From the NCBI RefSeq assembly GCF_004376175.1, contig NZ_SNUY01000082.1:1-14081 (forward strand): 14,081 nt of DNA, written 5' to 3'. The notes below the pieces were generated by a model, which did not search any database, was not told the DNA's origin, and saw only the letters and a program-made list of their open reading frames with translations. Below, in pieces: positions 1 to 14,081 of the stretch. Numbering within the stretch: the first letter of the stretch is position 1; every line of letters starts with the position of its first letter. The DNA is from Halalkalibacterium halodurans (GTDB lineage Bacteria > Bacillota > Bacilli > Bacillales > Bacillaceae_D). The translations under genes and the position numbers were made by a program.

Positions 1-135
1 TGTTCCCTTCGCCCTTGATTGACCTCTGAATAAACCATTGGTGTGTTTGTCAAGAGCGATAGCGTGGCATTTCCACCTAATAAATGGTAGGTAGTATGAA
101 CCGTGCTAGTTTTTCATAGAACTTTTGACACTACC
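1..135. repeat. Left arm of the inverted repeat flanking the window (partner 13956..14081). It continues beyond the left edge.
   Basis: Bases 11..90 match the reverse complement of 14002..14081 with 3 mismatches in 80 (positions 42, 65, 69). A divergent patch of about 20 nt with a 1-nt indel follows at 91..110. Bases 111..135 match again with 1 mismatch in 25. Similarity stops abruptly after ...TTTTGACACTACC at 135. Confidence 0.9.
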
Positions 136-255
136 CCATTCATTCCATATCGGTGATGGATCTCCTGCTTTTACTCGTAACTCACCGATTGATAATTCTT
201 CTTTTCCGAAATGAATTTAAAAAAGGGTTTACCGCCAAATATTAATAGACGAATG

Positions 256-290
256 TAAAAAGGAAGCCCCCTTCACTTAGGGAGCTTCCT
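256..290 (-). terminator. Rho-independent terminator downstream of the yugI-like gene
   Basis: AGGAAGCCCC (261-270) pairs with GGGAGCTTCCT (280-290) with one bulge. On the minus strand the stem is followed by TTTT. It lies directly after the stop codon at 301. Confidence 0.75.
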
Positions 291-300
291 TTGATCGTTA

Positions 301-717
301 CTATTTTTTGGCACGTTTGTTTAGGTCTGCTTGAATTTCGTTTGATTGCTTTAACCATTCTTTTAGTTTATCTTCTAATGTATTAAAGCCTTGTCCTTGG
401 CTTTGCCCTTTTTGTGGTTTACGTCCACCACCACCAGCTGGGCGTGGTTTTGGCGCGCGAGCTGGACGCTCAGGAGCCTCTTGTGTTGCACGGATGGAAA
501 GAGAAATTTTTCCACTTTCTTCGTCTACAGATAAAATTTTCACCTTCACTTCGTCACCTACGGAAAGAACATCATTGATGTCTTTCACAAAACCATGCGC
601 TACTTCAGAAATGTGAACCAATCCTTGCTTCTGATCGTCGATCGCAACGAATGCACCGAAGGGCTTGATTCCTGTGACTTTTCCTTCTACAATGCTGCCT
701 ACTTCATAATTTGACAT
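301..717 (-). CDS. yugI: S1 RNA-binding domain protein (YugI / general stress protein 13 family)
   Basis: The N-terminus YEVGSIVEGKVTGIKPFGAFVAI...GLVHISEVAHGFVKDINDVLSVGDEVKVKILSVDEESGKISLSIR is a canonical S1 OB-fold and closely resembles B. subtilis YugI. The tail is basic and low-complexity. RBS AGGAGA lies upstream of the ATG. Confidence 0.9.
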   Translation of the reverse strand: MSNYEVGSIVEGKVTGIKPFGAFVAIDDQKQGLVHISEVAHGFVKDINDVLSVGDEVKVKILSVDEESGKISLSIRATQEAPERPARAPKPRPAGGGGRKPQKGQSQGQGFNTLEDKLKEWLKQSNEIQADLNKRAKK

Positions 718-752
718 CCAAAAACATCTCCTAACTATTTATTAACTTGTTA

Positions 753-781
753 ATTTTAACACAGGTTGTCGTAATACGCAA
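753..781 (-). promoter_or_regulatory. Candidate sigma-A promoter for the yugI-like gene
   Basis: The minus strand reads TTGCGT-17 nt-TAAAAT, with a TGn extended -10 (TGT) immediately upstream of the -10 hexamer. Confidence 0.5.
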
Positions 782-815
782 AGCACATTTCGACTAGAAG
801 GAGATGGTGATGTTG

Positions 816-1985
816 TCATTTTTTCCTTTTGTTATGCCCTTTTAAACCATTATTCTTAGCATGGAGTTTACCATGGGACAGTACTCGCTCTTCAAAGGAA
901 AGATTTAGGCCTTTTTCGATTTTTTCCAGCTTATACATTTCCCGTTCACTCGTTAATGTGATCACGGTCCCTTCTTTACCCATTCGTCCAGTTCGTCCTG
1001 CGCGATGAACGTACGCTTCACTCGTCGTAGGTGGCTCCAGTTGGATCACATGGCTGACATCATCCACATCAAGACCGCGAGCTGCTACATCGGAAGCAAT
1101 GAGCACTTGCGCTTCACTTGTTTTCAATTGGTGCAATGCTCGCTCTCTTTCCTGTTTTGTTTGGTCAGATGACAAGGCGACTGCTTTAATTCCTTTGAAT
1201 TGTAACTTGGCTGTTGTTTCAGCTACATGTTCTAAACGGTTCACAAACACAATGCCGCGCTGAATGTTCTCATGGTGAATCAGCTTTCGTACCACATCCA
1301 TACGCTCTCGTTTTTCACAGCGAATGAACCAATGGTTTACTGCCTGCTGAACAGTGTTTCCTTGGGCTGACACCGTTTCTATAAAAGGGACATACGGAGC
1401 AACAAGCTCGGTAAACCGAGAAGCAAAGGTAGCAGAAACAAACAGATATTGCGCTTCATTCCCGATCCGTTTTGCCACATTCTCAAAGGCGTTCCATGCG
1501 CTCGTTTCTTCCATCATTCGGTCTGCCTCATCGACTACGATCATTTTGACATGGGTCACTTTTAGCTTTTTCATCTCCATTAATTCGAGAATACGTCCGG
1601 GTGTCCCAACCGCCACATGAGGTTTTTTCTTTTTTAATTTCTCGACCTGACGTTTTATATTTGCTCCACCGATGAGCGGGAGCACCGTGATTGAAGTGGT
1701 AGCGGTTAGTTGTTTTGCCACCTCGACGATTTGCATGGCGAGCTCCTGTGTCGGTGCCAATATAAGTGCTTGCGTCTGCTCTGGTAGTTCTTCCGTTTTC
1801 GTTAGCAACGGAAGCAAATACGCTAACGTTTTCCCTGTCCCTGTTTGTGAATGGACGATTAGATTTTGCCCATCCAATGCTTCCGGAATTACTTGTTGCT
1901 GAATTTCCGTAGGTTCTGTAATCCCTTGGTTTGTAAGAGCCTCTAGAAATGGTTCTCCAATTGGCCACTGCTGAAACTGATTCAT
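816..1985 (-). CDS. DEAD-box ATP-dependent RNA helicase (short, YfmL-like size)
   Basis: All core motifs are visible: Q-motif region, SQTGTGKT (motif I), PTQELA (Ia), TPGR, DEAD (II), SAT (III), HRAGRTGR (VI). RBS AGGAGA lies upstream. The start is only 20 nt after the thiM stop. Confidence 0.92.
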   Translation of the reverse strand: MNQFQQWPIGEPFLEALTNQGITEPTEIQQQVIPEALDGQNLIVHSQTGTGKTLAYLLPLLTKTEELPEQTQALILAPTQELAMQIVEVAKQLTATTSITVLPLIGGANIKRQVEKLKKKKPHVAVGTPGRILELMEMKKLKVTHVKMIVVDEADRMMEETSAWNAFENVAKRIGNEAQYLFVSATFASRFTELVAPYVPFIETVSAQGNTVQQAVNHWFIRCEKRERMDVVRKLIHHENIQRGIVFVNRLEHVAETTAKLQFKGIKAVALSSDQTKQERERALHQLKTSEAQVLIASDVAARGLDVDDVSHVIQLEPPTTSEAYVHRAGRTGRMGKEGTVITLTSEREMYKLEKIEKGLNLSFEERVLSHGKLHAKNNGLKGHNKRKK

Positions 1986-2005
1986 TTCGTCGTTTCTCCT
2001 ATCTT

Positions 2006-2791
2006 TTATGATCGTTCAAAGCGTCCATGCTGTTTTACATCTTCATCGGTCAAACGACCTAGCTGATTGAGAAAAGCCGTTTGGAACGATCCGTATCCTT
2101 TGGCTTTCGTCTCTTCATAAGCTTTTTCGGCTGCGACCCCATAAGCGACGAGCCCATAACCGATCACTTCCAAAAGGTCATCCGTTTTTAGGCTAGCAAA
2201 CGCCGCGACGATTGCCCCAGATAAGCAGCCTGTACCGACGACTTTCGTTAGCCATGGATGGCCATTGTAGCCACGAACCGTTCCCGTACCATCGGTAACA
2301 ACATCCACTTCGCCGGTTACAACAACTGCGCTATTCAGTACGTTTGCCGCATGCTTTGCCAATTCAACTGGGTCTGAATCAATGGAACCGTCGACCCCTT
2401 TGACCGTTCCTGCTTGATCGGATAGAGCTGCAATTTCGCCCCCGTTTCCCCGTACGATCGTAACGTCTACTTCCTTCAAGATTCGCTTACAACTCTCGGT
2501 ACGAAACGCTGTTGCCCCTGCCCCTACAGGATCTAACACGACAGGAGTACCAGCTTTATTAGCTGCTTTTCCTGCGATAATCATATTGTCAATGCTTTCT
2601 GCCGATAGTGTGCCTATGTTCAGAAGGAGTGCATTTGCTACCTTCGCCATGTCCGCTACTTCTTCTTTCGCATAAGCCATGACTGGAGACGCGCCAACGG
2701 CAAGTAGTCCGTTCGCTGTAAAATTTGTTACGACCACATTCGTCATACAATGAATGAGAGGATTACTTTTGCGTAGCATCTCAATGCTCAT
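2006..2791 (-). CDS. thiM: Hydroxyethylthiazole kinase
   Basis: 261 aa. NPLIHCMTNVVVTNFTANGLLAVGASPVMA, LLNIGTL and the C-terminal GTGCLSGAIVAAF are typical of the ThiM/ThiK family. A G-rich RBS lies upstream. Confidence 0.9.
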   Translation of the reverse strand: MSIEMLRKSNPLIHCMTNVVVTNFTANGLLAVGASPVMAYAKEEVADMAKVANALLLNIGTLSAESIDNMIIAGKAANKAGTPVVLDPVGAGATAFRTESCKRILKEVDVTIVRGNGGEIAALSDQAGTVKGVDGSIDSDPVELAKHAANVLNSAVVVTGEVDVVTDGTGTVRGYNGHPWLTKVVGTGCLSGAIVAAFASLKTDDLLEVIGYGLVAYGVAAEKAYEETKAKGYGSFQTAFLNQLGRLTDEDVKQHGRFERS

Positions 2792-2939
2792 TCAATCACC
2801 GATCCTTTCCTCACCCTTCATTTGTTGAAAATTTTACTCGTTTTTTCTTCGAATGACAAACGTCACTTTTTTCAGAAAGTTATGTATAGCTTTAGAACAA
2901 CTTGGGCATTCTATTGGTAGATGTATTCCCCCTTTTTTA

Positions 2940-2976
2940 ATCAACGTAGCATTAGCTGCGTTGATTTTTTTATTTT
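2940..2976 (+). terminator. Strong plus-strand rho-independent terminator with no plus-strand gene upstream
   Basis: An 11-bp stem, ATCAACGTAGC (2940-2950) with GCTGCGTTGAT (2955-2965), has loop ATTA and is followed by TTTTTTTATTTT. On the minus strand the stem is followed by TTAAAAAA, so it acts only on the plus strand. Confidence 0.7.
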
Positions 2977-2994
2977 AGTCACCAAACGTTTTCA

Positions 2995-3019
2995 TAAAAA
3001 AGCGCTTGGGACAAAGCAC
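2995..3019 (-). terminator. Weak candidate minus-strand terminator downstream of the nested hairpin
   Basis: The minus strand reads GTGCTT-TGTCCC-AAGCGC followed by TTTTTT. The stem is 6 bp and includes one G-U pair that forms only on the minus strand. Confidence 0.35.
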
Positions 3020-3048
3020 AGTACGGAGTTGATTGTTTCAAAAACTTG

Positions 3049-3118
3049 CTGCGGGCAAGGCTTCAGCTAGTCGGGGAAAATCGCCCCGATGGCTTTTCAG
3101 CCCTTGCTTTCCCCGCAG
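3049..3118. other. 70-nt nested, three-tier hairpin of unknown function
   Basis: CTGCGGG (3049-3055) pairs with CCCGCAG (3112-3118). CAAGG (3056-3060) pairs with CCTTG (3102-3106). TCGGGG (3071-3076) pairs with CCCCGA (3084-3089). The internal loop carries a direct repeat, GGCTTCAGC and GGCTTTTCAGC. Confidence 0.6.
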
Positions 3119-3320
3119 GCGTCTCGTGATTTTGACAATTTGCTTGGAAACGTCCGTCTAGTTATGCGTATGAAAGGGGGACGTATACTACCTGAAGGCT
3201 CATTTACGTTTTACTCGACTGCCGTAAGGGGTAACGAGAATACCAGAAATGAATGAGGATTTGCCTTCATGACTGTGAACTTACGAAAATCAAACAACAG
3301 ACGCCCCCATGAATCACCAG

Positions 3321-3366
3321 AAAAAAGGTTCGGATCCTTTTATTTTGATGGTCCGAACCTTTTTAT
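3321..3366. terminator. Bidirectional rho-independent terminator (ends alaT on the minus strand and can also stop plus-strand transcription)
   Basis: AAAAA-AGGTTCGGATC (3326-3336) pairs with GGTCCGAACCT (3350-3360), followed by TTTTTATT. The A-run before and T-run after make it functional in both orientations. Confidence 0.8.
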
Positions 3367-3392
3367 TACGTTGGGCTAGTTTTTCCCAGCCT

Positions 3393-4574
3393 CTATTGTT
3401 TGCATTTTTGCACAAAACGGCCAATTCGTTCGAGTGCCGTTTCTAAATGTTCCATAGATGTGGCATATGAACAACGGATGTGCCCTTCGCCACCTTCTCC
3501 GAACACATTCCCCGGAACAACCGCCACATGCTCCTCCATGAGAAGTCGTTCCGCAAATTCCTCAGAGGTAAGTCCGGTTTCTTTAACAGACGGAAACGCA
3601 TAGAAAGCTCCGCCAGGCATTGGACAAGTTAAGCCAATTTCGGTGAATGTTTTGACGACAAAATTGCGTCGTTGTCTGTAGGATTGAACCATGCGATGCA
3701 CATCGTCCATTCCTGTTTCTAATGCTTCCAACGCACCGTGCTGCGCCATTGTCGGTGCACACATAAGGCTGTATTGATGGATTTTTAGCATCGCGCTCAA
3801 AATATCATCTGGTGCACAGACATACCCAAGCCGCCAACCCGTCATCGCAAAAGCCTTCGAAAAACCAGAGATAAGAACGGTTCGTTCTCGCATTCCGTCC
3901 ATCGAAGCTAATGAAACATGGGTCCCATCATACGTAAGTTCTGCATAGATTTCATCCGAAAACACAATGAGGTCGTTTCCAGAAATCACCTTAGCCACTG
4001 CCTCTAACTCTTCTTTCCCCATAATCGACCCCGTCGGATTATTTGGAAAACAAAGAATAATCGCTTTTGTTCTTGGGGTAATCGCAGCCTCTATTTGCGC
4101 CGGTGTTACTTGGAAATCGGTATCGATATGCGTACCAACCGGAACCGGGACGCCTCCTGCCATCGTAACAAGTGGCGCATACGAAACAAAGCTTGGTTCG
4201 ACAACGATCACTTCATCCCCTTCGTCGATGATCGCGCGCATCCCGATGTCAATCGCTTCACTCGCACCAACCGTCACAAGAATTTCCGATTCAGGATCGT
4301 AACCTATGTGAAACCGCTCGTACAAATAACGGGAGATCGCTTCCCGAAGCTCAATGATTCCAGCATTTGCTGAATACGCAGTAAAACCACGCTCCATCGA
4401 AGAGATGCTCGCTTCCCTGACATTCCACGGCGTGACAAAATCAGGTTCACCAACACCAAGAGAAATAATATTTTCCATTTTTGAAGCGAGATCAAAAAAA
4501 CGGCGAATACCCGAAGGTTGAATCGATTGTACTCTCGTCGATAACCGTGTCCGTTGAGATGTAGAAGAAGTCAT
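3393..4574 (-). CDS. alaT: Class I/II pyridoxal-phosphate aminotransferase, alanine transaminase AlaT (YugH)-like
   Basis: 393 aa. It has IQPSGIRRFFDLA, LGVGEPDF, NPTG and the PLP-lysine motif SGFSKAFAMTGWRLGY. It sits immediately downstream of an Lrp/AsnC regulator with a 1-nt TAATG overlap, as in B. subtilis alaR-alaT (yugG-yugH). Confidence 0.85.
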   Translation of the reverse strand: MTSSTSQRTRLSTRVQSIQPSGIRRFFDLASKMENIISLGVGEPDFVTPWNVREASISSMERGFTAYSANAGIIELREAISRYLYERFHIGYDPESEILVTVGASEAIDIGMRAIIDEGDEVIVVEPSFVSYAPLVTMAGGVPVPVGTHIDTDFQVTPAQIEAAITPRTKAIILCFPNNPTGSIMGKEELEAVAKVISGNDLIVFSDEIYAELTYDGTHVSLASMDGMRERTVLISGFSKAFAMTGWRLGYVCAPDDILSAMLKIHQYSLMCAPTMAQHGALEALETGMDDVHRMVQSYRQRRNFVVKTFTEIGLTCPMPGGAFYAFPSVKETGLTSEEFAERLLMEEHVAVVPGNVFGEGGEGHIRCSYATSMEHLETALERIGRFVQKCKQ

Positions 4575-5068
4575 TATGGCGTCACCACAATTCGTTTATC
4601 GTCTTCGTCCTTTTTAAAAACAACCCCATCATGCTTATATTTTTTTAGTTGAAAGTGGGTCGTTGTTGAAAGAACCGTATCAATCGTTGATAGTTTTTCT
4701 GAGACAAACCGAGCGACCTCCGACATGGTCTTCCCTTCAATGACGACGGAGAGGTCATAAGCCCCCGACATTAAATAAAGCGCTTTTACTTCTGGGAAGC
4801 GGTAAATACGTTCAGCTACCTCATCAAAGCCAACCCCGCGCTGTGGCGTAACTTTAACATCAATCATGGCAGTTACCGTCTCGACTTCCTTCACTTTGCT
4901 CCAGTCAATCACCGCTGAGTAGGATAAAATCACATGGTCATTTTCAAGCTTTTTAATGATCGCTGTCACTTCTTCTTCAGTGGCATCAATCATTTTTGCT
5001 AAAGTCGGTATTGGCACACGGCCGTTTTCCTCAAGAATGTGCAGCACATCAAGCTCTTTTCTCTCCAC
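4574..5068 (-). CDS. alaR: Lrp/AsnC-family transcriptional regulator (AlaR/YugG-like)
   Basis: The HTH region is ELDVLHILEENGRVPIPTLAKMIDATEEEVTAIIKKLENDHVI, followed by a RAM/AsnC_trans_reg domain. The ORF stays open up to a GTG at 5170, but a GTG at 5068 is preceded by AAAGGGGAAG and gives the family-typical length of about 164 aa. Confidence 0.8.
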   Translation of the reverse strand: MERKELDVLHILEENGRVPIPTLAKMIDATEEEVTAIIKKLENDHVILSYSAVIDWSKVKEVETVTAMIDVKVTPQRGVGFDEVAERIYRFPEVKALYLMSGAYDLSVVIEGKTMSEVARFVSEKLSTIDTVLSTTTHFQLKKYKHDGVVFKKDEDDKRIVVTP

Positions 5069-5325
5069 GATGTGTCTTCCCCTTTCGTCAACAAAACCAT
5101 CAAATTCGTTTCGTATATCATACCACAATCCACTGTCCCTTTCCGTGAAAAATGTTACTTTTTTATTCACGAAAATGACCTGTTCTGTTCATTGCTTTTC
5201 CCAGTAAAAGATTGATACAATTCATGGTAATACTAAACGACGAGCCTCTTCATTTAATGGAATCGGTTCTTAAAGCATCGACTAGTCTAGCTGCGCAAAT
5301 AACATGAGAGAAAGGGTCGATTACG

Positions 5326-5766
5326 TTGGAAAAACCTACTGTTGATGATTACCTCAAAAAAGGAATTTACGGTCAGAAGGAAATTAATCCAGAAGAAAAG
5401 CGAACATTCCTTGGAACGTTTCGAGAACGGATCATTGTCGCCCTTACCCAATCACAAGTAAGAGAACAAGGAACGTACAAAGAAGTGGAGGAGCTTATGA
5501 GTCGTAATCGGGAGGCCAAGCTCTATTTAAACGGCTCCCTCGATTTTAAATATTTACGGGATTACATTCAAATAGCAGACCAACTCTCCATTGATTATCT
5601 TGTGGTCTCAAATCAAGAGAAAGAGACAGATATTGGTCTCGTTCTTGCCCATGATCATGCGATCGACAAAGAGGATATTTTTATCGAGGAACACACGGAG
5701 AAAGACGATTTGGAAAAAGATGAGAAGGGGCTGTCCGCATTCTTGAACCGTCTGTTTCGTCCATAG
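5326..5766 (+). CDS. DUF1694 (YueI-like) protein
   Basis: 146 aa with a TTG start preceded by AGAAAGGG. GIYGQKEINPEEKRTFLGTFRERIIVALT resembles the YueI/DUF1694 family as I recall it. Confidence 0.7.
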   Translation: MEKPTVDDYLKKGIYGQKEINPEEKRTFLGTFRERIIVALTQSQVREQGTYKEVEELMSRNREAKLYLNGSLDFKYLRDYIQIADQLSIDYLVVSNQEKETDIGLVLAHDHAIDKEDIFIEEHTEKDDLEKDEKGLSAFLNRLFRP

Positions 5767-5805
5767 CCATCGTTTCACCTCAGTCTTGTATTTCCATCGA
5801 AAATG

Positions 5806-5836
5806 TAAAAAGCGAGCTGGATCACTCGCTTTTTTT
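5806..5836. terminator. Bidirectional terminator between the convergent DUF1694 gene and luxS
   Basis: AAAAA-AGCGAG (5811-5816) pairs with CTCGCT (5825-5830), followed by TTTTTTT. Confidence 0.75.
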
Positions 5837-6311
5837 ACGATTCAAATACTTTTGTTAACGAATCTTTCTCATGAGACAACCAGTAGGTCATGAGTTTTTT
5901 TGCGCCGTCTAAATCGTGGAGGTTTGCTTGCCCACACTGCTTCTCGTTAGCAGCCGGTACTTCCTCTAGCTCAAGAGAATACTTCATCGTTTGTTCGAGA
6001 ACATCGATGATTTCCTCCACCGTTGGCTTACCGCTCATAATTAAATAAAAGCCTGTTTGGCATCCCATCGGGGAAAGATCAATGACATCAAAGTGATCAT
6101 ATGCTTCAGCAAATTTGCGAATATTCAAGGCAAGTAAATGCTCTAGTGTATGAATCACATCAGGCTTCATCGCCTGTTTATTTGGTTGAAAAAAACGAAT
6201 GTCAAACTTGTTCACCTCTCCGTTAGTCCCGACTTTATGTGTACCACACGGACGGACGAATGGCGCTTTTACAATCGTATGGTCAAGCTCAAAGCTTTCA
6301 ACTGTTGGCAT
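5835..6311 (-). CDS. luxS: S-ribosylhomocysteine lyase
   Basis: [20 protein letters not shown]..., the metal-binding HTLEHL motif and the conserved C-terminal half are present. RBS GGAGGAGGAAG lies upstream. Confidence 0.95.
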
Positions 6312-6370
6312 ACTACTTCCTCCTCCTCTTTCCTTTTGTCCTTTCAGTATAAAGGAACAATCGTGCTCTG

Positions 6371-6811
6371 TTAAGATTCATCTTCTTTTTTGATTGAAGA
6401 TGGCTCATAATGGTTAAGATGTTTAATCAAGATCTCCTGCCTCTCGGCGAATGCATACAGATCTTCATGAAACGATTCGGGTTGAAAGCGACTGAACTTC
6501 AAACGAAACCCTTTTTTTAAGAAAAACACGACCACATGACTACGAGTTGTTTTGATGAAATACGCTTCTTTTATTTGTTCGGCTCTTATCTCACGAGATA
6601 ACAACTGAGCAGAAGAGAGGGAAATCGTAAATGAAATCACATCCCCTTTGATCTGAAACCGATAACGGATAAAAGAGAGCAATACAAACAGCAAAAACGG
6701 AAGATACAGGAGGAACGTCCACCTTCCTTCCAGAATGATACTATTTAAAAGTGTCAGCAAAGCGAGAGCTAGCCAAATCATCTTTCCTTCCGATGCAGTA
6801 TATACGTTCAT
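6371..6811 (-). CDS. Hypothetical small membrane protein (two N-terminal TM helices plus a soluble domain of about 90 aa; the layout resembles bacterial PH-domain proteins)
   Basis: Hydrophobic segments [18 protein letters not shown] and [16 protein letters not shown] are followed by a charged domain. I recognise no motif with confidence. Confidence 0.55.
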
Positions 6812-6966
6812 TGATCAATCGTCCCTTTCCATATGCTAGCCTACCGTCCTATAGGAAGCGTGCCTGTGGACAAAAGCATCTACACCCTTGGCAATCAACT
6901 ACCATTATACACAAGTTTAACGGCTTGTTGGACCAAAAACTTGTGGAAAGGAAGGGAGAAGCACAC

Positions 6967-7785
6967 ATGGGCAAAAACACATTTTTCTATCAATTCTTTA
7001 AACAATTGAAAACCGATCCAATCCCGGACTGGTCAGCAACCCTTGCGTACTATTTTATGCTATCCATCTTTCCACTCATCATTTTTATCCTAGCGCTCAT
7101 TCCATATTTTTCAATTGATCAACAGTACCTCTACCAAATCATTGTCGATTATTTGCCTGAGGATTTGGCAGACGTCTTTACCTCAGTGATTTTAGATGTT
7201 GTAAGCAGACCTCAAGGTGGCCTAGTATCATTCGGTGCTCTTGCCGCCATATGGACGGCTTCTAACGGCATGAATGCCCTCATTCGAGCCGTAAATCGTT
7301 GCTATGCGGTCGAAGAAACGCGAAGTCTTTATAATTTGCGGTTTCTTTCCATCATGTTAACAATCGGCATGATGCTCGTTTTTGTTACAACGCTGTTACT
7401 CCCTGTTTTCGGACATTTAATCATCCAATTGCTAGATTGGTTATTTATTGTTCCTGAAGGGACCGCTTCGGTGCTAAATGCCTTGCGCTGGATCGTTGGT
7501 ATTTGTTTAATGACCATTATCCTCATTGTTATCTATCTCCTCGCACCGAACACGTCTTTAAAATTAAAAGATGTCGTAACAGGTGCGGTTGTCGCAACAA
7601 TTGGCTGGCAGCTTATTTCATACGGCTTCTCTGCTTATGTAAGCAACTTCGGGAATTTCTCTGCCACGTATGGAAGTCTAGGAGGGGTGATCGTGCTCAT
7701 GCTTTGGTTTTTTCTCAGCAGCCTTATGCTCATCATTGGTGGTGAGGTCAACGCGGCCACCTATCGATTGAAGCAGCAACAGTAA
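6967..7785 (+). CDS. YihY/virulence factor BrkB family membrane protein
   Basis: FFKQLKTDPIPDWSATLAYYFMLSIFPLIIFILALIPYF and the multi-TM body are typical of the YihY/BrkB family. The real start is the ATG at 6967, preceded by AAGGAAGGGAGAAG. The 6751 start in the ORF track is an upstream read-through. Confidence 0.85.
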   Translation: MGKNTFFYQFFKQLKTDPIPDWSATLAYYFMLSIFPLIIFILALIPYFSIDQQYLYQIIVDYLPEDLADVFTSVILDVVSRPQGGLVSFGALAAIWTASNGMNALIRAVNRCYAVEETRSLYNLRFLSIMLTIGMMLVFVTTLLLPVFGHLIIQLLDWLFIVPEGTASVLNALRWIVGICLMTIILIVIYLLAPNTSLKLKDVVTGAVVATIGWQLISYGFSAYVSNFGNFSATYGSLGGVIVLMLWFFLSSLMLIIGGEVNAATYRLKQQQ

Positions 7786-7961
7786 AGATAGAAAACTTGA
7801 AGTTTTAATAATCGAAACAATCGATTTCTTACATTTTGATTCTTTCTAGTGGATAAACGTCTAAAAGTGCAAAAATTCTCCGCTTTCTGTGTATAAACTT
7901 AATAAAACTGGCAATGATGGTACCAGCACTCGTAAAACATGCGAGATTAGGAGGAGTAAAC

Positions 7962-8234
7962 ATGAATAAAACAGAACTTATCCATCAAGTGGCAGAACGT
8001 ACACAGATGTCAAAAAAAGATGCTGGTGAAGTTGTTAACACTGTATTTGATGTCATTGCTGAATCCCTTGCCCAAGGTGACTCTGTACAACTGATCGGGT
8101 TCGGAAACTTTGAAGTGCGTGAACGTGCCGCACGAAAAGGTAGAAACCCACAGACTGGAGAGGAAATTGACATTGCCGCAACAAAAACACCAGCGTTCAA
8201 AGCGGGAAAGCAGCTAAAAGATGCAGTGAAGTAA
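7962..8234 (+). CDS. hup: HU family DNA-binding protein
   Basis: 90 aa: [99 protein letters not shown] lies 7 nt upstream of the ATG at 7962. Confidence 0.95.
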
Positions 8235-8236
8235 CA

Positions 8237-8270
8237 GAAAAAACGCCCCTTTATAGGAGGCGTTTTTTCT
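8237..8270. terminator. Terminator after the HU gene (A-run before and T-run after, so possibly shared with the convergent RDD gene)
   Basis: AAAAAACGCCCC-TTTATA-GGAGGCGTTTTTT. Confidence 0.8.
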
Positions 8271-8315
8271 TGGTCTACGAGTAGGATCAATGAAATAAGT
8301 TCTGTCTTCTTTAAC

Positions 8316-8744
8316 CTATTCAGCCTCAGGTGTTTGCCCTGGTGCGTCATACGTAACATAGGTTCCAGCAATTAAATCATGCAAGCTTCTCTTGTCTTCG
8401 CGCAATCCAACCATAAAGGCGCTGACAATGACGGCAATACCAAAAGTAATAAGATAAACAAAACCTGCCACAATCGTTCGCAGCAACATTGTTCCGATCC
8501 CTACATTTTCTCCGTCCATTTTTACAATTCGTACACCACAAATCTTTTTTCCAATCGTGTAGCCTAGCCATAAAACAGGCAGTAATAATCCATAGACTAG
8601 GTTGACCCCGCCTTGAAAAATAGAAGTCATCGGCTCTTCCAAACCTAAAATAAGCGTAATAATCGCGAGAGGAATACCTATAATGATGCCATCTAGAAGA
8701 CCAGCGCCTAGGCGAATCCAAAATCCTGCTGGGTTACTAACCAC
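8316..8744 (-). CDS. RDD family membrane protein
   Basis: NPAGFWIRLGAGLLDGIIIG, three TM segments and the C-terminal RSLHDLIAGTYV are typical of RDD/YckC-like proteins. Confidence 0.8.
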   Translation of the reverse strand: MVSNPAGFWIRLGAGLLDGIIIGIPLAIITLILGLEEPMTSIFQGGVNLVYGLLLPVLWLGYTIGKKICGVRIVKMDGENVGIGTMLLRTIVAGFVYLITFGIAVIVSAFMVGLREDKRSLHDLIAGTYVTYDAPGQTPEAE

Positions 8745-8900
8745 TTTTGATCATCCTTTCTTGGTTTTACGTTCATTCCCATTTTAGTGTTTAATCATGC
8801 AATCGACAATCTTTTTTATTGAAAGCACCTTTTCTACTACTTAATTATCGATTGAAGACGAAAAGAGTTTTCACAGACTCATGCCTTTTGACTCTTATTA

Positions 8901-8929
8901 TGTCAACATATTTATGTAGACAGTTGACA
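8901..8929. promoter_or_regulatory. BirA (biotin repressor) operator
   Basis: A perfect inverted repeat, TGTCAAC-N15-GTTGACA, matches the Firmicutes BirA-box layout TGTnAAC-N15-GTTnACA. It overlaps the -35 of the bioY promoter. Confidence 0.8.
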
Positions 8930-8952
8930 AAGTCACCTCATTTGCTTACGAT
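8924..8952 (+). promoter_or_regulatory. Sigma-A promoter of bioY
   Basis: TTGACA-17 nt-TACGAT lies 35 nt upstream of the bioY ATG. The -35 hexamer sits inside the right half-site of the BirA box. Confidence 0.6.
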
Positions 8953-8986
8953 TATGTTAACTAATTCACTTCGGAGGTAAACATTC

Positions 8987-9580
8987 ATGGCAACAAAATC
9001 GTTTCGCACCATAGATCTTGTGTTAGTACCAATGTTTGCAGCCTTGATGGGCATCGGTGCTAACGTTACATCTTTTCTTGTCATTGGCGGCGTACCCATC
9101 ACCCTACAAACGCTGTTTTCCATCCTCGCAGGCGCACTTCTAGGAAGTCGACTTGGCGCGTTTGCTATGTCCCTCTATTTACTTGTCGGGCTCGTTGGCT
9201 TTCCAGTCTTTGCCCAATTCAAGGGAGGCTTGAGCACATTTGTTAGCCCAACATTCGGGTTCCTAATTTCCTTCATTCTCGTTGCGTATGTGACAGGGAA
9301 AATCATCGAAAAGAGTGAAAGTAAATCTTTCTTCACATTCGTTATTGCATGCTTTATCGGACTTATTATTAACTATGTCGTTGGGACGAATTATATGTAT
9401 TTTGCTTATATCACCATTGCAGAAGCCCCTGAAGGCTTCACCTATTCAATGGCCTGGGCTTGGATGATCGCGCCTTTCATAAAGGATGTCATCGTCACAA
9501 TCGCTGCTGCGGTAGTTGCCCACCGTATTTACGGCACTGTCCGGAAACACCGACCGAATCATTTACAGCAAGCAAGTTAA
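8987..9580 (+). CDS. bioY: Biotin transporter BioY (ECF-type S component)
   Basis: 197 aa and multi-TM. VPITLQTLFSILAGALLG and GLVGFPVFA...GGLSTFVSPTFGFLISFI are typical BioY motifs. RBS GGAGG and a BirA box lie upstream. Confidence 0.92.
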   Translation: MATKSFRTIDLVLVPMFAALMGIGANVTSFLVIGGVPITLQTLFSILAGALLGSRLGAFAMSLYLLVGLVGFPVFAQFKGGLSTFVSPTFGFLISFILVAYVTGKIIEKSESKSFFTFVIACFIGLIINYVVGTNYMYFAYITIAEAPEGFTYSMAWAWMIAPFIKDVIVTIAAAVVAHRIYGTVRKHRPNHLQQAS

Positions 9581-9595
9581 TCCTTTATGCAAGAA

Positions 9596-9635
9596 AAAGG
9601 TCTGCTCTCTAATGGAGAAGCGACCTTTTATTTTT
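9596..9635. terminator. Bidirectional terminator after bioY
   Basis: AAAGGTCTGCTCTCT pairs with AGAGAAGCGACCTTT (two bulges), followed by TTTTATTTTT, with an A-run upstream. Confidence 0.6.
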
Positions 9636-9904
9636 CATTGAAAGATGGTCCTGATTGGGTTAGAGGGGTGTAACATAAAATCGACTTCTGCCTTTTCTTC
9701 ACCGTTAACGATAATGGTCAGTTTATGCATTCCAGGATAGAGAGTTCTTGCTGATAAATGGTTAAACGTATGTTTACGGACGAATTGTATCGTACCTTTA
9801 GAACAAGTTTTCTCAGATAAGTAAAAGACTTTGCGATTTTGTCGTCCATTCGCTTTCACGAAATAAATCCCGTATTCGATCCTTACCTTAGGAGGTAATG
9901 TTTT
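9635..9904 (-). pseudogene. C-terminal remnant (about 85 codons) of a DNA alkylation repair protein (YhaZ/COG4335-like)
   Basis: The open frame reads ...VRIEYGIYFVKANGRQNRKVFYLSEKTCSKGTIQFVRKHTFNHLSARTLYPGMHKLTIIVNGEEKAEVDFML. This matches my recollection of the C-terminal module of DNA alkylation repair proteins of about 370 aa (motif ...F.KANG...KVFKL...H.F...TR.YY.G.H.L.I.ING...F.L). The frame opens just after a TGA at 9905-9907, directly beside the upstream gene's terminator. There is no convincing RBS and the only start is a GTG. Confidence 0.55.
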
Positions 9905-9910
9905 TCAAGC

Positions 9911-9940
9911 AAAAAAAGAACGAGGACTCGCTCCTCGTTC
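9911..9940 (-). terminator. Rho-independent terminator of the yuiF-like transporter gene
   Basis: A 9-bp stem, GAACGAGGA (9918-9926) with TCCTCGTTC (9932-9940), has loop CTCGC and is followed on the minus strand by TTTTTTT. Confidence 0.85.
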
Positions 9941-9951
9941 GATCATTTTAT

Positions 9952-11274
9952 TTACAGCATCATCGCCGCAATCCAACCAAAAAGTAAGAGTGGAATATTA
10001 AAGTGAAGAAAGGTCGGCACACATGTATCCCAAATGTGATTATGTTGACCATCGGCGTTCAATCCTGCCGTCGGCCCAAGCGTACTGTCTGAAGCGGGAG
10101 CTCCGGCATCCCCTAACGCTCCAGCAGTTCCAATTAGGACGATAATCGCCATTGGACTAAAACCAACAGCCAACCCTAACGGAACGAACAATGTAGCGAT
10201 AATCGGAATCGTCGAAAAGGACGAGCCGATCCCCATCGTAATAAACAAGCCAACGACGAGCATGAGCATAGCCGCCAGCCCTCGTTGCTGCCCAATGACA
10301 GCGGCCACTTGTTCAACAAGTAGCTCCACATGACCCGTTTCACGGATGACGGCGGCAAAGCCTGCAGCTGTGAGCATGACAAAGCCGATGAACGCCATCA
10401 TCTTCATCCCTTCTGTCACCGCTTGATCCGCTTCCCTACGATTAAAAGATCCTGACAAAAATAAAATCATCAACCCGGCCAAACCAGCAATAATCATCGA
10501 TTCAGAATAATATTGTACGACCAATGTGACAACAATGGCCACTACGGCACAGGCGATGGTCCAGTTCGAATAGCTGATCTCTTCCTGCTTAAATTCTGCA
10601 CTAATTTCACGATTTTCATAGCTTCTTGGTCCCCGGTATGTTACAAATACGGCAAAAAGCAACCCTACGACTAAGCCTATCGTTGGCAGTGCCATCGCCG
10701 TCGGAATCTCTGCCATCGTCACCTCAAGACCATTATCGGCAATGTTCGACTGAATAATCCCGTGGAAGATTTGCCCGAACCCATATGGCAAGAAAATGTA
10801 AGGCGCTGTTAAGCCAAACGTTAAAATCGTCGCGATTAACCGACGATCCACTTCTAATTCATTTAAAATTTTTAAAATCGGTGGAATTAAAATTGGGATA
10901 AACGCAATGTGAATGGGAATTACATTTTGAGAAAAACAAGAAATGATGAGAATAACGAAAAATAATAATGCCTTTGATAACGTTTTTCTTCGATCTTCCC
11001 CTTCTTTCCCTACTAGCCGAAGCACGACATTCACCATGACATCCGGCAACCCCGTCTTTGAAATCGCCACCGCAAAGGCACCGAGCAACGCATAGCTCAA
11101 TGCAACAGTCGCATTCCCTCCAAGCCCTTCACTGAACACTTCGATCGTCTCTAAAAACCCGAGACCGCCTACTACTCCACCGACGATAGCCCCAATCGAA
11201 AGGGCAAGGACAACGTGAACACGAAGTAAGCTTAAAACTAACATAACAATGACCGCAAGCAAGACGGCATTCAT
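9952..11274 (-). CDS. yuiF: Na+/H+ antiporter family (NhaC-superfamily) transporter, YuiF-like putative amino-acid transporter
   Basis: Polytopic, about 440 aa. MNAVLLAVIVMLVLSLLRVHVVLALSIGAIVGG...GLGGNATVALSYALLGAFAVAISKTGLPD resembles B. subtilis YuiF. As I recall, yuiF also neighbours a bioY paralog (yuiG) in B. subtilis. The ATG at 11274 sits 9 nt after GGAGAGG. The upstream GTG and ATG codons overlap that RBS. Confidence 0.8.
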   Translation of the reverse strand: MNAVLLAVIVMLVLSLLRVHVVLALSIGAIVGGVVGGLGFLETIEVFSEGLGGNATVALSYALLGAFAVAISKTGLPDVMVNVVLRLVGKEGEDRRKTLSKALLFFVILIISCFSQNVIPIHIAFIPILIPPILKILNELEVDRRLIATILTFGLTAPYIFLPYGFGQIFHGIIQSNIADNGLEVTMAEIPTAMALPTIGLVVGLLFAVFVTYRGPRSYENREISAEFKQEEISYSNWTIACAVVAIVVTLVVQYYSESMIIAGLAGLMILFLSGSFNRREADQAVTEGMKMMAFIGFVMLTAAGFAAVIRETGHVELLVEQVAAVIGQQRGLAAMLMLVVGLFITMGIGSSFSTIPIIATLFVPLGLAVGFSPMAIIVLIGTAGALGDAGAPASDSTLGPTAGLNADGQHNHIWDTCVPTFLHFNIPLLLFGWIAAMML

Positions 11275-11450
11275 AAAAAACATCCTCTCCACGACAACAA
11301 ATACTTTAGTTTATTAAATCACTAATATACTAAAATATGAAACTCCGGTTGTCAAGGTAACCGATGTCAGGTAAAAAACACCATCGGACATGCTGCTTTT
11401 CGAGCTTCTCTTATCCTTTAATCATTTAGTGAAGTTAACTTTCCTAGAAT

Positions 11451-11489
11451 GCAAAACGAGTCGCACCTTAGCAACTAAAGGTGCGACTC
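11451..11489 (-). terminator. Terminator of the sigma/PadR-like/SEDS-like operon
   Basis: An 11-bp stem, GAGTCGCACCT (11458-11468) with AGGTGCGACTC (11479-11489), is followed on the minus strand by GTTTTGCATTC. The stop codon of the SEDS-like gene (11475-11477) lies in the loop. Confidence 0.65.
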
Positions 11490-12770
11490 CTTCAAACCAC
11501 GATCGATCACAACATATTGATGGCGATAAACATTTAAAATGATCCCTATTAATCCACTGTAATACATTTGCTGTCCTATACCGAAGCTCAGTATTGGTAC
11601 GGAATGTTCGATAATGGGGAGCCAGCCAATGTTCATAAATACACCCATTATGAGCGGCACTACTATGAGTGTCGTTGCCCCGATCACAAGAACGCTTCCT
11701 TTCAGGTCAGGGGTTCGGCGGCTTGTGCGAACAAAGCGAACGATAGCATAGACAAACAGAGCTAAAATGCTCAATGCAGGAACCCAACCAATTTCATGTA
11801 TCAAAAACAAAAGCACTAAATCCGTATTGTAGCGAAGCTCTACCATCGTTTGTGCAAATTGTGAGCTTCCTCTCCCGAAAAATACCGAATGCTGTAGCAA
11901 ATCTTGATTGATGAACGGTATATAACCAAAGCTAGAAGAATATTGCTCGGGTCGAAGCCAACCGAGAACCCGGTCAATCTGATGCTGCGGCGCTATCGAG
12001 ATGTAAAACGTTACCGCGATTACGAGGAGACAGACATTCACCAAAAGAAAGGTTATTTTTTCCCTCTGTTTACTGCTTTTCAAAAAATACGTAAAAAGAC
12101 TTAATGAAAAATACGCAAATGCAGCAATATAATGTGTTAAAAACGTTAAAAACATGACAGGAAGCCATACGAGTAGGATTGTCAACGAAAGAGGCTTTCG
12201 TTTTGCAATCAATAAGTAGCCAATCCAGCCGAGTAAGAGAAGAAAGTTGACGACCATCATATCCATCGTTCCACCTAGTGGAGAAAAATACACTTTCCCG
12301 TTAACTGTTAGCGAAAATATCGGCATTAACGTGAGTAGCAATATCCCCATTCCCATTGCCAGCCATATTTTCCACCATGAAAGCAGTTTTTCATAAGGAA
12401 AGAGCATGCATCCAACGAGAACAATACTAGAAGCAAATAAAGATAGCCATTGGTATGTCATGATTCCTCCGATTTCGTTCTTTACGAGAAACACCGGTAG
12501 CATACTAATGGCTAGCAGCAGCCCAGCAACGATCAAAAGTGGCCAATCCATCACAGGACGGTGCAAGCGGTTCATTTTCAATCCTAAATCGTCAGGATCC
12601 CCCATGTCTTGGACCGCTTTTGCACTCGCCTCTTCCTCCGTATAACCTGCTTTTTTATAGGCTTTCGAGCTCTCATTCAGATGATGACGAAGCTCTTTTT
12701 CCACTAGTTCTCGCCCTGCTTTTGATTTCATTTGACCTAAAACCCTTGCAAGAAAGTCATCCATTTTCAA
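11475..12770 (-). CDS. Divergent SEDS (FtsW/RodA/SpoVE)-like polytopic membrane protein with an N-terminal DUF1700/permease-prefix-like cytoplasmic helical domain
   Basis: The N-terminal 70 aa (MDDFLARVLGQMKSKAGRELVEKELRHHLNESSKAYKKAGYTEEEASAKAVQDMGDPDDLG) have the DUF1700/permease-prefix pattern seen in partners of PadR regulators. About 10 TM segments follow. The C-terminal third aligns by eye with SEDS: LGWLRPE...FGYIP...FFGRG...YNTDLVLLFLIHEIGW...NIGWLPIIEHSVPILSFGIGQQ corresponds to SEDS ...HTDFIF..GEELG...G.LP.TG.PLPF.SYGGS. A TTG start at 12770 lies 7 nt after GGGGTG. An ATG follows two codons later. Confidence 0.7.
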   Translation of the reverse strand: MKMDDFLARVLGQMKSKAGRELVEKELRHHLNESSKAYKKAGYTEEEASAKAVQDMGDPDDLGLKMNRLHRPVMDWPLLIVAGLLLAISMLPVFLVKNEIGGIMTYQWLSLFASSIVLVGCMLFPYEKLLSWWKIWLAMGMGILLLTLMPIFSLTVNGKVYFSPLGGTMDMMVVNFLLLLGWIGYLLIAKRKPLSLTILLVWLPVMFLTFLTHYIAAFAYFSLSLFTYFLKSSKQREKITFLLVNVCLLVIAVTFYISIAPQHQIDRVLGWLRPEQYSSSFGYIPFINQDLLQHSVFFGRGSSQFAQTMVELRYNTDLVLLFLIHEIGWVPALSILALFVYAIVRFVRTSRRTPDLKGSVLVIGATTLIVVPLIMGVFMNIGWLPIIEHSVPILSFGIGQQMYYSGLIGIILNVYRHQYVVIDRGLKESHL

Positions 12771-13185
12771 AGCCCAACACCCCCTTAAACGTTAGCTTCG
12801 CCTCTTGTTCTACTGTTCTTGTTAGTACATCCCGCCCCTTGGATGTTGTTTGATAAATCTTTACTTCTTCTCCATCCCTCATCACCCACCGACTTTTCAC
12901 AAAACATTCCATTTCTAGCCTGTGTAAGTATGGATAAAGAACTCCCTCCTGACCATAAAAGGTATGACACCCTTTTTGCTCTAGGTTCGTGAGCAATTGA
13001 TATCCCGTCTTTTCTTCATGCTGCAAAGAGGCCAGGATCTCGAGCAAGTCATTTGGTCGCACGAGCGTTTGCAGCATTAGCTTTTTACGGACAGCGTCCT
13101 GTCCACGTTCTGTGAAAGACCAGTTTTGAAACATCGATGTATCGAGTGACTGTTTCATTTTTTTCCGAAGCTCATCGTCCATCAT
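12757..13185 (-). CDS. PadR-like winged-helix protein with an N-terminal extension of about 45 aa (sits in the anti-sigma position)
   Basis: LLEILASLQHEEKTGYQLLTNLEQKG...GVLYPYLHRLEMECFVKSRWVMRDGEEVKIYQTTSKGRDVL follows the PadR wHTH pattern (GY.I...L, G.LYP.L.RLE..G.I, K.Y.LT..G). Its start overlaps the sigma stop (ATGA) and its stop overlaps the downstream start. Confidence 0.7.
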   Translation of the reverse strand: MMDDELRKKMKQSLDTSMFQNWSFTERGQDAVRKKLMLQTLVRPNDLLEILASLQHEEKTGYQLLTNLEQKGCHTFYGQEGVLYPYLHRLEMECFVKSRWVMRDGEEVKIYQTTSKGRDVLTRTVEQEAKLTFKGVLGFENG

Positions 13186-13733
13186 GTTTCGTCCTCCTTT
13201 TCGAGCAAATTTTTCAAAAGCAACCGTCCTTTTCTTAACCGTGTCTTAACTGTATTTTCGTTAAGTCCTGTAAAGCTTGCCACTTCCTTAACCGACAGTT
13301 CCTCGTAATAGTAGAAATAAATGACTTCTCGGTACGAAAGGGGCAACGAAAAAACAGCAGCTGCTAATCGCTCTTCATCACTTTTCAACAAAACTTCGTA
13401 TTCTGGTGTTTGTTCTGTTGTTTCGATTTCCTCCGCCACTTCCGACGGATAAACATGCTTTGCGTGCCAGCTTTTCAAAAAGTCCTTACCTCGATTAATG
13501 GCGATTCGGTACAGCCACGCTTTGGCAGAGGATCGCGTTTGATATGTATGGTAAGACTGAAACGCTCTAACAAAAACCTCTTGCGTTAAGTCTTCCGCTA
13601 TTTGTTTATCTTTAACGTAAGAATAAACAACACGGAGAATCGCTGTGCCGTACTCTTCCATCCAAGCAATTAGTTGATGTTCCCGCATTTCTGCCGTTTC
13701 GATTTCTCCTATTTTCCCTGGTAACGACTCCAC
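13182..13733 (-). CDS. ECF-type RNA polymerase sigma-70 family factor
   Basis: Region 2 is DLTQEVFVRAFQSYHTYQTRSSAKAWLYRIAINRGKDFLK. Region 4 is REVIYFYYYEELSVKEVASFTGLNENTVKTRLRKGRLLLK. The GTG start lies 7 nt after AGGAGG. Confidence 0.9.
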   Translation of the reverse strand: MESLPGKIGEIETAEMREHQLIAWMEEYGTAILRVVYSYVKDKQIAEDLTQEVFVRAFQSYHTYQTRSSAKAWLYRIAINRGKDFLKSWHAKHVYPSEVAEEIETTEQTPEYEVLLKSDEERLAAAVFSLPLSYREVIYFYYYEELSVKEVASFTGLNENTVKTRLRKGRLLLKNLLEKEDET

Positions 13734-13753
13734 ATCTTCACCTCCTTACTTTA

Positions 13754-13782
13754 TAAACGATGCACACACGAAAATGGTTTTC
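13754..13782 (-). promoter_or_regulatory. Candidate ECF-type autoregulatory promoter
   Basis: The minus strand reads GAAAAC-17 nt-CGTTTA (an AAC-type -35 and a CGT-type -10), directly upstream of the sigma gene's RBS. Confidence 0.35.
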
Positions 13783-13955
13783 TTTTTTCGCTTTATCTTT
13801 ATTGAAAGATCTCGATCACCAAAAATGTACCAAATGAACATCGTTTACATAATGTATAAAGACTTTTGCGGAAATCACAAACATCCAAACGGCCACATTT
13901 GGAACAAAAATGATTGACAACGTATAGGATAATTTAGCATCTTCTCTATCGTCCA

Positions 13956-14081
13956 GGTAGTGTCAAAACTTCTATGAAAACCTTATTTGGATCTAACACT
14001 ACTACCATTTATTAGGTGGAAAGGCCGCGCTATCGCTCTTGACAAACACGCCAATGGTTTATTCAGAGGTCAATCAAGGGC
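13956..14081. repeat. Right arm of the inverted repeat flanking the window (partner 11..135). It continues beyond the right edge.
   Basis: It starts abruptly at GGTAGTGTCAAAACTTCTATGAAAA and runs to the last base of the window. Its reverse complement matches 11..135, as detailed for the left arm. Confidence 0.9.

Follow-up and report, generated by a model that had tools for sequence, protein, structure and literature searches.

The three minus-strand genes considered here lie in a 14,081-nucleotide (nt) stretch of Halalkalibacterium halodurans DNA (RefSeq assembly GCF_004376175.1, contig NZ_SNUY01000082.1, positions 1 to 14,081; hereafter the window), and encode an extracytoplasmic function (ECF) sigma factor, a PadR-family protein and a membrane protein with an FtsW/RodA-like (SEDS) fold. 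The closest described system is that of Listeria monocytogenes, in which lmo0423 (sigC), lmo0422 (lstR, encoding a PadR-like protein) and lmo0421, the product of which is an FtsW/RodA homologue of non-canonical type, form one tricistronic operon (Hauf et al. 2019, PMC6624303). Deletion of lstR derepresses lmo0421 145-fold, lmo0423 139-fold and a PsigC-lacZ fusion 77-fold, inactivation of sigC abolishes PsigC activity, and an LstR variant with a triple substitution in its DNA-recognition region leaves PsigC no less derepressed than the deletion does (PMC6624303). Sigma C and LstR have just one clear target in Listeria, namely lmo0421 itself, and a stable L-form strain has been reported to carry a spontaneous mutation in this gene. 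When overproduced, Lmo0421 fails to take over from FtsW1 or RodA1-3, and sensitivity to six cell-wall antibiotics stays unchanged (PMC6624303).

ECF265, a Firmicutes group of sigma factors (Casas-Pastor et al. 2021) that also holds sigma P/RsiP of Bacillus thuringiensis, appears in a review as one of the ECF groups that lack a cognate anti-sigma factor, with conserved PadR repressors encoded close by (PMC8999054). The HAAS domain, as described by Ravi et al. 2024 (PMC11237479), consists of three helices, the third of which is kinked at a GxP motif, overlaps DUF1700, and invariably has a PadR-like winged-helix partner. Among the fusions explicitly listed there are those to FtsW/RodA/SpoVE membrane domains, with the Listeria study cited as an example, and on the basis of computational prediction the domain has been proposed to relay a membrane signal to the PadR protein (PMC11237479).

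The H. halodurans trio is a member of the sigma C/LstR/Lmo0421-type module. The sigma factor (13182..13733, - strand; 183 amino acids (aa), GTG start) has profile matches to Pfam Sigma70_r2 at aa 25-88 and r4_2 at aa 122-172, and is assigned to the sigma C family by NCBIfam NF006930, 'RNA polymerase factor sigma C', with 247.7 bits (curated cut-off 198) and aa 10-180 aligned to model positions 7-178 of 179. The second gene (12757..13185, -) encodes a 142-aa protein, predicted to be a PadR-family repressor, that scores 169.6 bits (cut-off 112) against the NCBIfam equivalog NF006931 (PRK09416), which we take to be the lstR family, with aa 4-138 aligned to model positions 2-134 of 135. It was these two matches that pointed to the Listeria sigC operon. 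The third gene (11475..12770, -; TTG start) encodes a 431-aa membrane protein, assigned by profiles and an AlphaFold2 model as a fusion of a HAAS and a SEDS domain (HAAS-SEDS), and 99% identical, at 100% coverage, to BH3360 of Halalkalibacterium (Bacillus) halodurans C-125; no mention of BH3360, BH3361 or BH3362 was found in the literature searched.

A preliminary description of this DNA, made from its letters alone, had presented the operon as an undescribed module lacking a characterised counterpart, and had named a characterised sigma/anti-sigma family of exactly this composition as what would speak against that claim. Since the Listeria sigC-lstR-lmo0421 operon has exactly the composition of the trio, the claim has to be abandoned; indeed, as Hauf et al. 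2019, the ECF265 review and Ravi et al. 2024 between them cover both the architecture and the idea of signalling from HAAS to PadR, these too were already published, and the trio is not a new kind of sigma/anti-sigma system. What is new here is the spread of the trio, the promoter that its members share, the absence of an N-terminal PadR extension from pairs without a sigma gene, and the family-wide loss of the SEDS QPxE..K motif.

The three open reading frames (ORFs) span 11475-13733 and are tightly coupled. The sigma stop and the PadR start have a common ATGA (13185-13182, -; a 4-nt overlap), and the membrane-protein start overlaps the PadR stop by 14 nt (8 nt, should translation really begin at an ATG at 12764); these overlapping codons suggest coupled and approximately stoichiometric synthesis of the PadR protein and its membrane partner. 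The operon has in total one promoter motif and one terminator. The latter, an intrinsic terminator at 11458..11489 (-), comprises a 12-bp stem, of which 7 pairs are G-C, that is capped by an 8-nt loop; GTTTTGCATT comes next, and the stem overlaps the membrane-protein stop codon. The next gene past the terminator (11292..9952) encodes a Na+/H+ antiporter family protein and has its own sigma-70-like promoter (11355..11327). Much of the preliminary description therefore stands, i.e. its gene calls and translational coupling, with the 4- and 14-nt overlaps; its single terminator after the trio (12-bp stem at 11489..11458, -); its assignment of all three domain types, borne out by profile matches to Sigma70_r2/r4_2, PF03551, FTSW_RODA_SPOVE and perm_prefix_1; and its candidate ECF-type promoter, the motif of which is unique in the window and recurs in 33 related loci.

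That promoter, predicted to be a sigma-C-type ECF autoregulatory promoter (13754..13781, -), has a -35 element AAAAC(C) and a -10 element CGTTTA, with 17 nt from AAAAC to the -10, and precedes a sigma gene with a ribosome-binding site (RBS), AAGGAGG, 9 nt 5' of its start. The pattern AAAACY-N16-CGTYTA has a single match in the window (13781..13754, -), for a chance expectation of 0.01; it occurs upstream of the sigma gene in 33 family loci, with one match in each matching locus, as well as in 2 decayed loci (L117 and L118), and in 1 of 78 canonical SEDS control loci. In related loci the conserved arrangement upstream of sigma is AAAACTTT, a spacer and CGTCTAA, about 20 nt before the RBS, and an AAAAC-N17-CGTC promoter is common to the trio loci, in a sample of about 36 distinct cores that fall, as grouped by eye, into around eleven sequence groups. 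By analogy with Listeria, where PsigC activity needs sigma C, the motif likely functions as a promoter read by the sigma factor encoded downstream of it.

The sigma start codon is GTG in the window (13731-13733) and in 38 of 40 related loci, the other 2 having TTG; conservation of GTG could conceivably provide a brake on translation of a self-activating sigma factor. The sigma starts of the window and of loci L083-L151 are always preceded by a strong AGGAGG-type RBS. A candidate inverted repeat on either side of the -10, seen in related loci, was rejected, the mean longest match being 4.53, compared with 4.49 in shuffled controls. Some 70 nt upstream of the -35 (window 13830-13860, -) there is a perfect 11-nt palindrome, TACATTATGTA, plus an ATGT-N9-ACAT element, both of which are reminiscent of the half-sites (ATGT/ACAT) of classical PadR proteins; some related loci, such as L083 and L108, have a similar TTATATGTAA at a comparable distance, whereas others, such as L096 and L110, do not.

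The PadR protein has a winged helix-turn-helix core at aa 50-122 (12820..13038, -; PF03551, 51.4 bits, E = 1.1e-13, profile positions 1-74 of 75). Because PF03551 covers only this region, about 45 N-terminal residues are extra. This extension (aa 1-45; 13051..13185, -) has two predicted helices and is defined by its conservation in sigma-linked loci, all PadR proteins of which, i.e. those of the window, five genomic contexts and 42 metagenome loci, have the consensus MEDRLKxLKKxMDxTxFxxLxFxExHxxxVxEKI with two invariant phenylalanines (F19 and F24). By contrast, the four PadR partners encoded without a sigma gene are of 110-116 aa and all lack it. The correlation, as seen at the level of sequence, is suggestive of a sigma-related role for the extension; it may also reflect one evolutionary event, since the sigma-linked loci may form a single clade.

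With respect to the origin of the extension, searched alone it matches only NF006931 (about model positions 1-43, E = 2.9e-10), giving no Pfam match, no PDB match of note (best E = 1.6), and nothing else in NCBIfam except one chance-level match (E = 0.056). Anti-sigma ancestry of the extension was rejected, there being no similarity to Pfam, NCBIfam or PDB anti-sigma domains. The full-length gene 2 product likewise matches only PadR models in Pfam and NCBIfam, with no anti-sigma domain match and no transmembrane segment. The operon thus differs from a classical ECF sigma/anti-sigma pair, in which an anti-sigma domain, usually with a transmembrane helix, is encoded downstream of sigma, and the view taken beforehand, that there is no conventional anti-sigma gene and that gene 2 encodes a soluble PadR-type protein with an extra N-terminal segment, was correct. 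A single-sequence structure model of the PadR protein was unusable, with a predicted local distance difference test score (pLDDT) of 42.9.

The membrane protein begins with a cytoplasmic HAAS/permease-prefix domain (aa 1-72; 12555..12770, -), which is matched by NCBIfam NF038403 (perm_prefix_1, 'permease prefix domain 1') on aa 17-63 with 41.1 bits (cut-off 30); Pfam DUF1700 gave no match to the membrane protein at E <= 0.1. In the AlphaFold2 model (75-sequence alignment, pLDDT 92.9, predicted TM-score 0.91), helices are predicted at residues 3-12, 17-40, 45-56 and 59-70, with a break at G57-D58-P59, and ten membrane helices follow from residue 76. The modelled domain would thus have the three helices and GxP-kinked third helix by which HAAS domains are defined, and MGxP or MGxA is present in 142 of 153 family proteins. 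The ten-helix core (aa 76-418; 11517..12545, -), which has the SEDS fold and a degenerate active site, was identified by Foldseek and a family profile. FTSW_RODA_SPOVE (PF01098) matches aa 78-418 with 49.8 bits (cut-off 26.4), Foldseek with the model retrieves FtsW (8p1u, 8bh1) and RodA (6pl5, 8tj3) structures with E-values from 3e-10 to 5e-8 and TM-scores, normalised to the target, of 0.76-0.82, and the HAAS-SEDS family profile matches RodA with E = 5e-51. The protein is, however, well below the curated cut-offs of the RodA, FtsW and SpoVE family models, i.e. TIGR02210 (59.8 versus 336.7), TIGR02614 (50.4 versus 337.5) and TIGR02615 (30.8 versus 448.8).

An exhaustive HMMER search with the membrane protein gave 3,843 relatives at E <= 0.001. 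Among the best 150 clusters (at 50% identity), all but a few have 400-500 aa and align from about residue 4, i.e. with the N-terminal domain included. Named genera with HAAS-SEDS proteins are Halalkalibacter, Sutcliffiella, Alkalihalophilus, Fictibacillus, Caldalkalibacillus, Priestia, Niallia, Metabacillus and Lysinibacillus, and the named members are annotated merely as FtsW/RodA/SpoVE family. When the membrane protein, the PadR protein and the family profile were used as queries in word-indexed homologue searches, nearly everything retrieved was a self-match or a canonical SEDS protein.

To assess the SEDS active site, the window protein was aligned with 140 representatives of HAAS-SEDS, with 70 canonical SEDS proteins from control loci, and with the RodA proteins of Escherichia coli and Thermus thermophilus, and six positions were compared (E. 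coli RodA numbering). W102 is present in 70/70 canonical SEDS and 15/140 HAAS-SEDS proteins. Q111, E114 and K117 are present in 70/70, 70/70 and 67/70 canonical SEDS proteins, respectively, and none of them is among the five commonest residues at its position in HAAS-SEDS. D159 is an aspartate in 54 and an asparagine in 16 of the 70 canonical proteins, and an aspartate in 15 of the 140. D262 is invariant in canonical SEDS (70/70), and in HAAS-SEDS is represented by 90 aspartates, 27 glutamates and 10 asparagines. The QP[SAT]E..K motif occurs in 65/70 canonical and 0/140 HAAS-SEDS proteins and, of the six residues, canonical proteins keep 5-6 and HAAS-SEDS proteins 0-3. At the positions of W102, Q111, E114, K117, D159 and D262 the window protein has Y161, D170, M172, N175, T212 and D317, i.e. 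one of the six is kept. The first five positions are presumed to be essential, in view of RodA structures and of their invariance in the alignment. The sixth, D262, is equivalent to D280 of Bacillus subtilis RodA, a catalytic-site residue (PMC12457691). The residue pattern in HAAS-SEDS is thus probably not that of a working polymerase, as the preliminary description had supposed for the window protein, and it agrees with the failed complementation in Listeria; loss of the otherwise invariant QPxE..K motif across the family favours a sensor or pseudo-enzyme.

The trio is co-conserved. Scanning of metagenomes with a motif keyed on the junction of the HAAS domain and the first membrane helix gave 67 loci, and the sigma, PadR and HAAS-SEDS genes are on one strand in 42 of the 43 with at least 1 kb upstream, these loci having been picked through one motif and many being closely related. 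The trio is also present in five genomic contexts, namely a Solibacillus metagenome-assembled genome, Sutcliffiella cohnii, a contig that encodes the protein of Alkalihalophilus pseudofirmus (strain OF4 falls within its cluster) and another two contigs. A contig scan on the pattern LPFISYG yielded mostly canonical SEDS proteins and two family loci only. The lone exception among the 43, L118 (3400-4761), is decayed, with sigma and PadR deleted, and L117 has the same arrangement. In L118 the promoter, RBS and first seven sigma codons (GTG GAA GAA TTG CTG CTT GAG GGG TGA) run straight into a HAAS-SEDS gene disrupted by a frameshift and an in-frame stop.

PadR adjoins HAAS-SEDS in the window and wherever the upstream DNA of a related locus extends far enough, bar one decayed locus, and the two occur without sigma in four contexts, i.e. 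Clostridium grantii, Paenibacillus albiflavus and two metagenome contigs. Because such pairs occur without sigma, the PadR and HAAS-SEDS dyad is the conserved core, to which sigma is an added layer. The presence of the module in many Bacillaceae, and of its core in Clostridium and Paenibacillus, marks it as a general Firmicute device rather than a Listeria oddity. In P. albiflavus (L081:5463-8120) genes for an ATP-binding cassette ATPase and an FtsX-type permease come after the PadR and HAAS-SEDS pair, in the same orientation; fusions of HAAS to FtsX-like permeases have likewise been published (PMC11237479).

We favour, with moderate confidence in the model as a whole, an autoregulated sigma loop gated by PadR and governed by HAAS-SEDS as a membrane sensor. 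The ECF sigma factor, which has no anti-sigma factor, would read its own promoter (AAAAC-N17-CGT), giving a positive feedback loop. An LstR-type PadR dimer would bind near the promoter and hold the loop off, and, the repressor being made from the same transcript, its repression would amount to negative feedback. The likeliest membrane sensor is the SEDS-fold protein, which has lost most of the SEDS active-site signature and has a cytoplasmic N-terminal HAAS domain. On receipt of an envelope or lipid-linked signal, HAAS may bind or reconfigure PadR, so that repression would be lifted and the sigma loop would fire. The regulatory logic, in which LstR represses and sigma C is required, would be carried over from Listeria, and a HAAS-PadR contact, a sensor role for the SEDS-like protein, and the nature of the signal are proposed by analogy with the described systems.

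Some observations weigh against this model. The window protein (D317) and about 65% of the family retain the aspartate equivalent to D262/D280, and an LPExHTDF stretch is conserved in the HAAS-SEDS family; together these suggest that some substrate or ligand binding, or residual chemistry, is possible. Contact between HAAS and PadR is a prediction, in the literature as here. The LstR operator was not identified, there being no inverted repeat with a 6-nt seed in the promoter region of the window, and, in Listeria, PsigC was not induced by nine antibiotics, dyes or disinfectants (PMC6624303). Orthology to the Listeria proteins is suggested by curated family models and shared architecture.

The main rival, put forward by Hauf et al. 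and apparently unlikely, is that the SEDS-like protein is the output of the operon rather than its sensor. It would be a reserve peptidoglycan polymerase, either resistant to a natural inhibitor of SEDS proteins or using a modified lipid II, and PadR would itself sense a small molecule, in the manner of classical PadR and LmrR-type repressors. This alternative would account for the SEDS-like gene being both the sole non-regulatory gene of the operon and the only clear sigma C/LstR target in Listeria, as well as for the full SEDS fold, for retention of the D317 equivalent in 90/140 family members with a glutamate in 27 more, and perhaps for the lmo0421 mutation in the L-form strain. The same family has, however, lost W102, QPxE..K (E114-K117; 0/140) and usually D159, while in Listeria Lmo0421 overproduction rescues neither loss of FtsW1 nor loss of all RodA copies, and moenomycin and beta-lactam sensitivity stays the same. 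In addition, the window has no class B penicillin-binding protein gene, and the constant presence of a PadR-associated HAAS domain would be left unexplained. That the genes are simply chance neighbours without a joint function has a negligible probability. Of 43 informative metagenome loci, 42 keep the order, strand and overlaps, as do several Bacillaceae genomes, and the single locus without sigma and PadR has a decayed SEDS-like gene, so this possibility is refuted by the conservation data.

It may instead be that LstR-type proteins are bifunctional, the 45-residue extension being a sigma-binding, anti-sigma-like module, such that gene 2 encodes both a repressor and a sigma antagonist, with HAAS-SEDS releasing both activities; we consider this quite unlikely. 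The extension is present in every sigma-linked PadR protein examined (window, five contexts and 42 metagenome loci) and in 0/4 of the PadR and HAAS-SEDS pairs without sigma. Further, the PadR gene, directly after sigma and with the ATGA overlap, is in the usual anti-sigma position, a slot in which about half of ECF265 sigma factors have a single-pass anti-sigma factor. On the other hand, the Listeria lstR substitution that removes DNA binding derepresses like the deletion, from which it follows, provided that the mutant protein is stable, that an intact extension does not alone hold sigma C back; the extension is unlike any Pfam, NCBIfam or PDB anti-sigma domain; and, if the sigma-linked loci are one clade, the correlation may reduce to a single event. 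The earlier suggestion that the PadR protein acts on sigma itself is weakly contradicted by the same Listeria mutant. A yet more elaborate version, for which the probability is distinctly low, would have the extension as a minimal sigma-binding module and the degenerate SEDS protein as a receptor for lipid II or an undecaprenyl-linked precursor that releases both activities via HAAS. Were it true, the three parts of the operon would make up an envelope sensor based on a dead polymerase.

The remaining genes of the window (301-11292) are ordinary housekeeping genes with no evident tie to the operon. They encode S1-domain, DEAD-box helicase, DUF1694, LuxS, BrkB/YihY-family, BioY and Na+/H+ antiporter family proteins, together with a class I/II aminotransferase, the gene for which overlaps that for an AsnC-type regulator by 1 nt. 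A 600-bp stretch (2792-3392), between the genes for a hydroxyethylthiazole kinase (2006-2791, -) and the aminotransferase (3393-4574, -), is without an ORF of at least 60 aa and has no Rfam match, including no thiamine pyrophosphate riboswitch at the gathering threshold; neither an Rfam family nor a tRNA was found in the window as a whole.

With the active site lost across the family, the question shifts from which polymerase the SEDS-fold protein backs up to what it senses and how it signals to PadR. Questions as to the signal, the coupling of HAAS to PadR, and the role of the extension have already been raised by the work on Listeria and on HAAS.

Compared with known systems, the trio is closest to Listeria sigC-lstR-lmo0421, which has the same gene order and composition (PMC6624303, PMC6686043). 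The two differ in the length of the membrane protein (431 aa in the window, 416 aa in Listeria; PMC6686043), in host (an alkaliphilic Bacillaceae species, as opposed to Listeria lineage II), and in the promoters upstream, three of which are reported in Listeria, whereas the ECF-type one alone was identified in the window. In Listeria, regulation has been shown genetically; in the window, sigma activation and PadR repression are predicted from the promoter motif and the genes. The PadR-neighbourhood statement of the review suggests a possible link of the window sigma factor to ECF265. Sigma P of that group has a single-pass anti-sigma factor, regulated proteolysis of which controls it; such an anti-sigma factor is absent from the operon of the window.

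As in the published HAAS-PadR dyads, the window has a GxP-kinked N-terminal domain on a multi-pass membrane domain, adjoined by a standalone PadR protein. Most described dyads, however, have PspC, LiaF-type, Toastrack or FtsX-like partners, rather than SEDS, and the ECF sigma layer, the PadR extension and the SEDS motif loss are features of the window outside the discussion of Ravi et al. 2024. With canonical RodA, FtsW and SpoVE, the membrane protein has in common the ten-helix SEDS fold, the PF01098 match and the equivalent of the catalytic aspartate. It is set apart from them by the loss of W102, QPxE..K and D159, by scores (59.8 and 50.4) far under the thresholds of TIGR02210 and TIGR02614, the RodA and FtsW equivalog models, and by its additional cytoplasmic HAAS domain.

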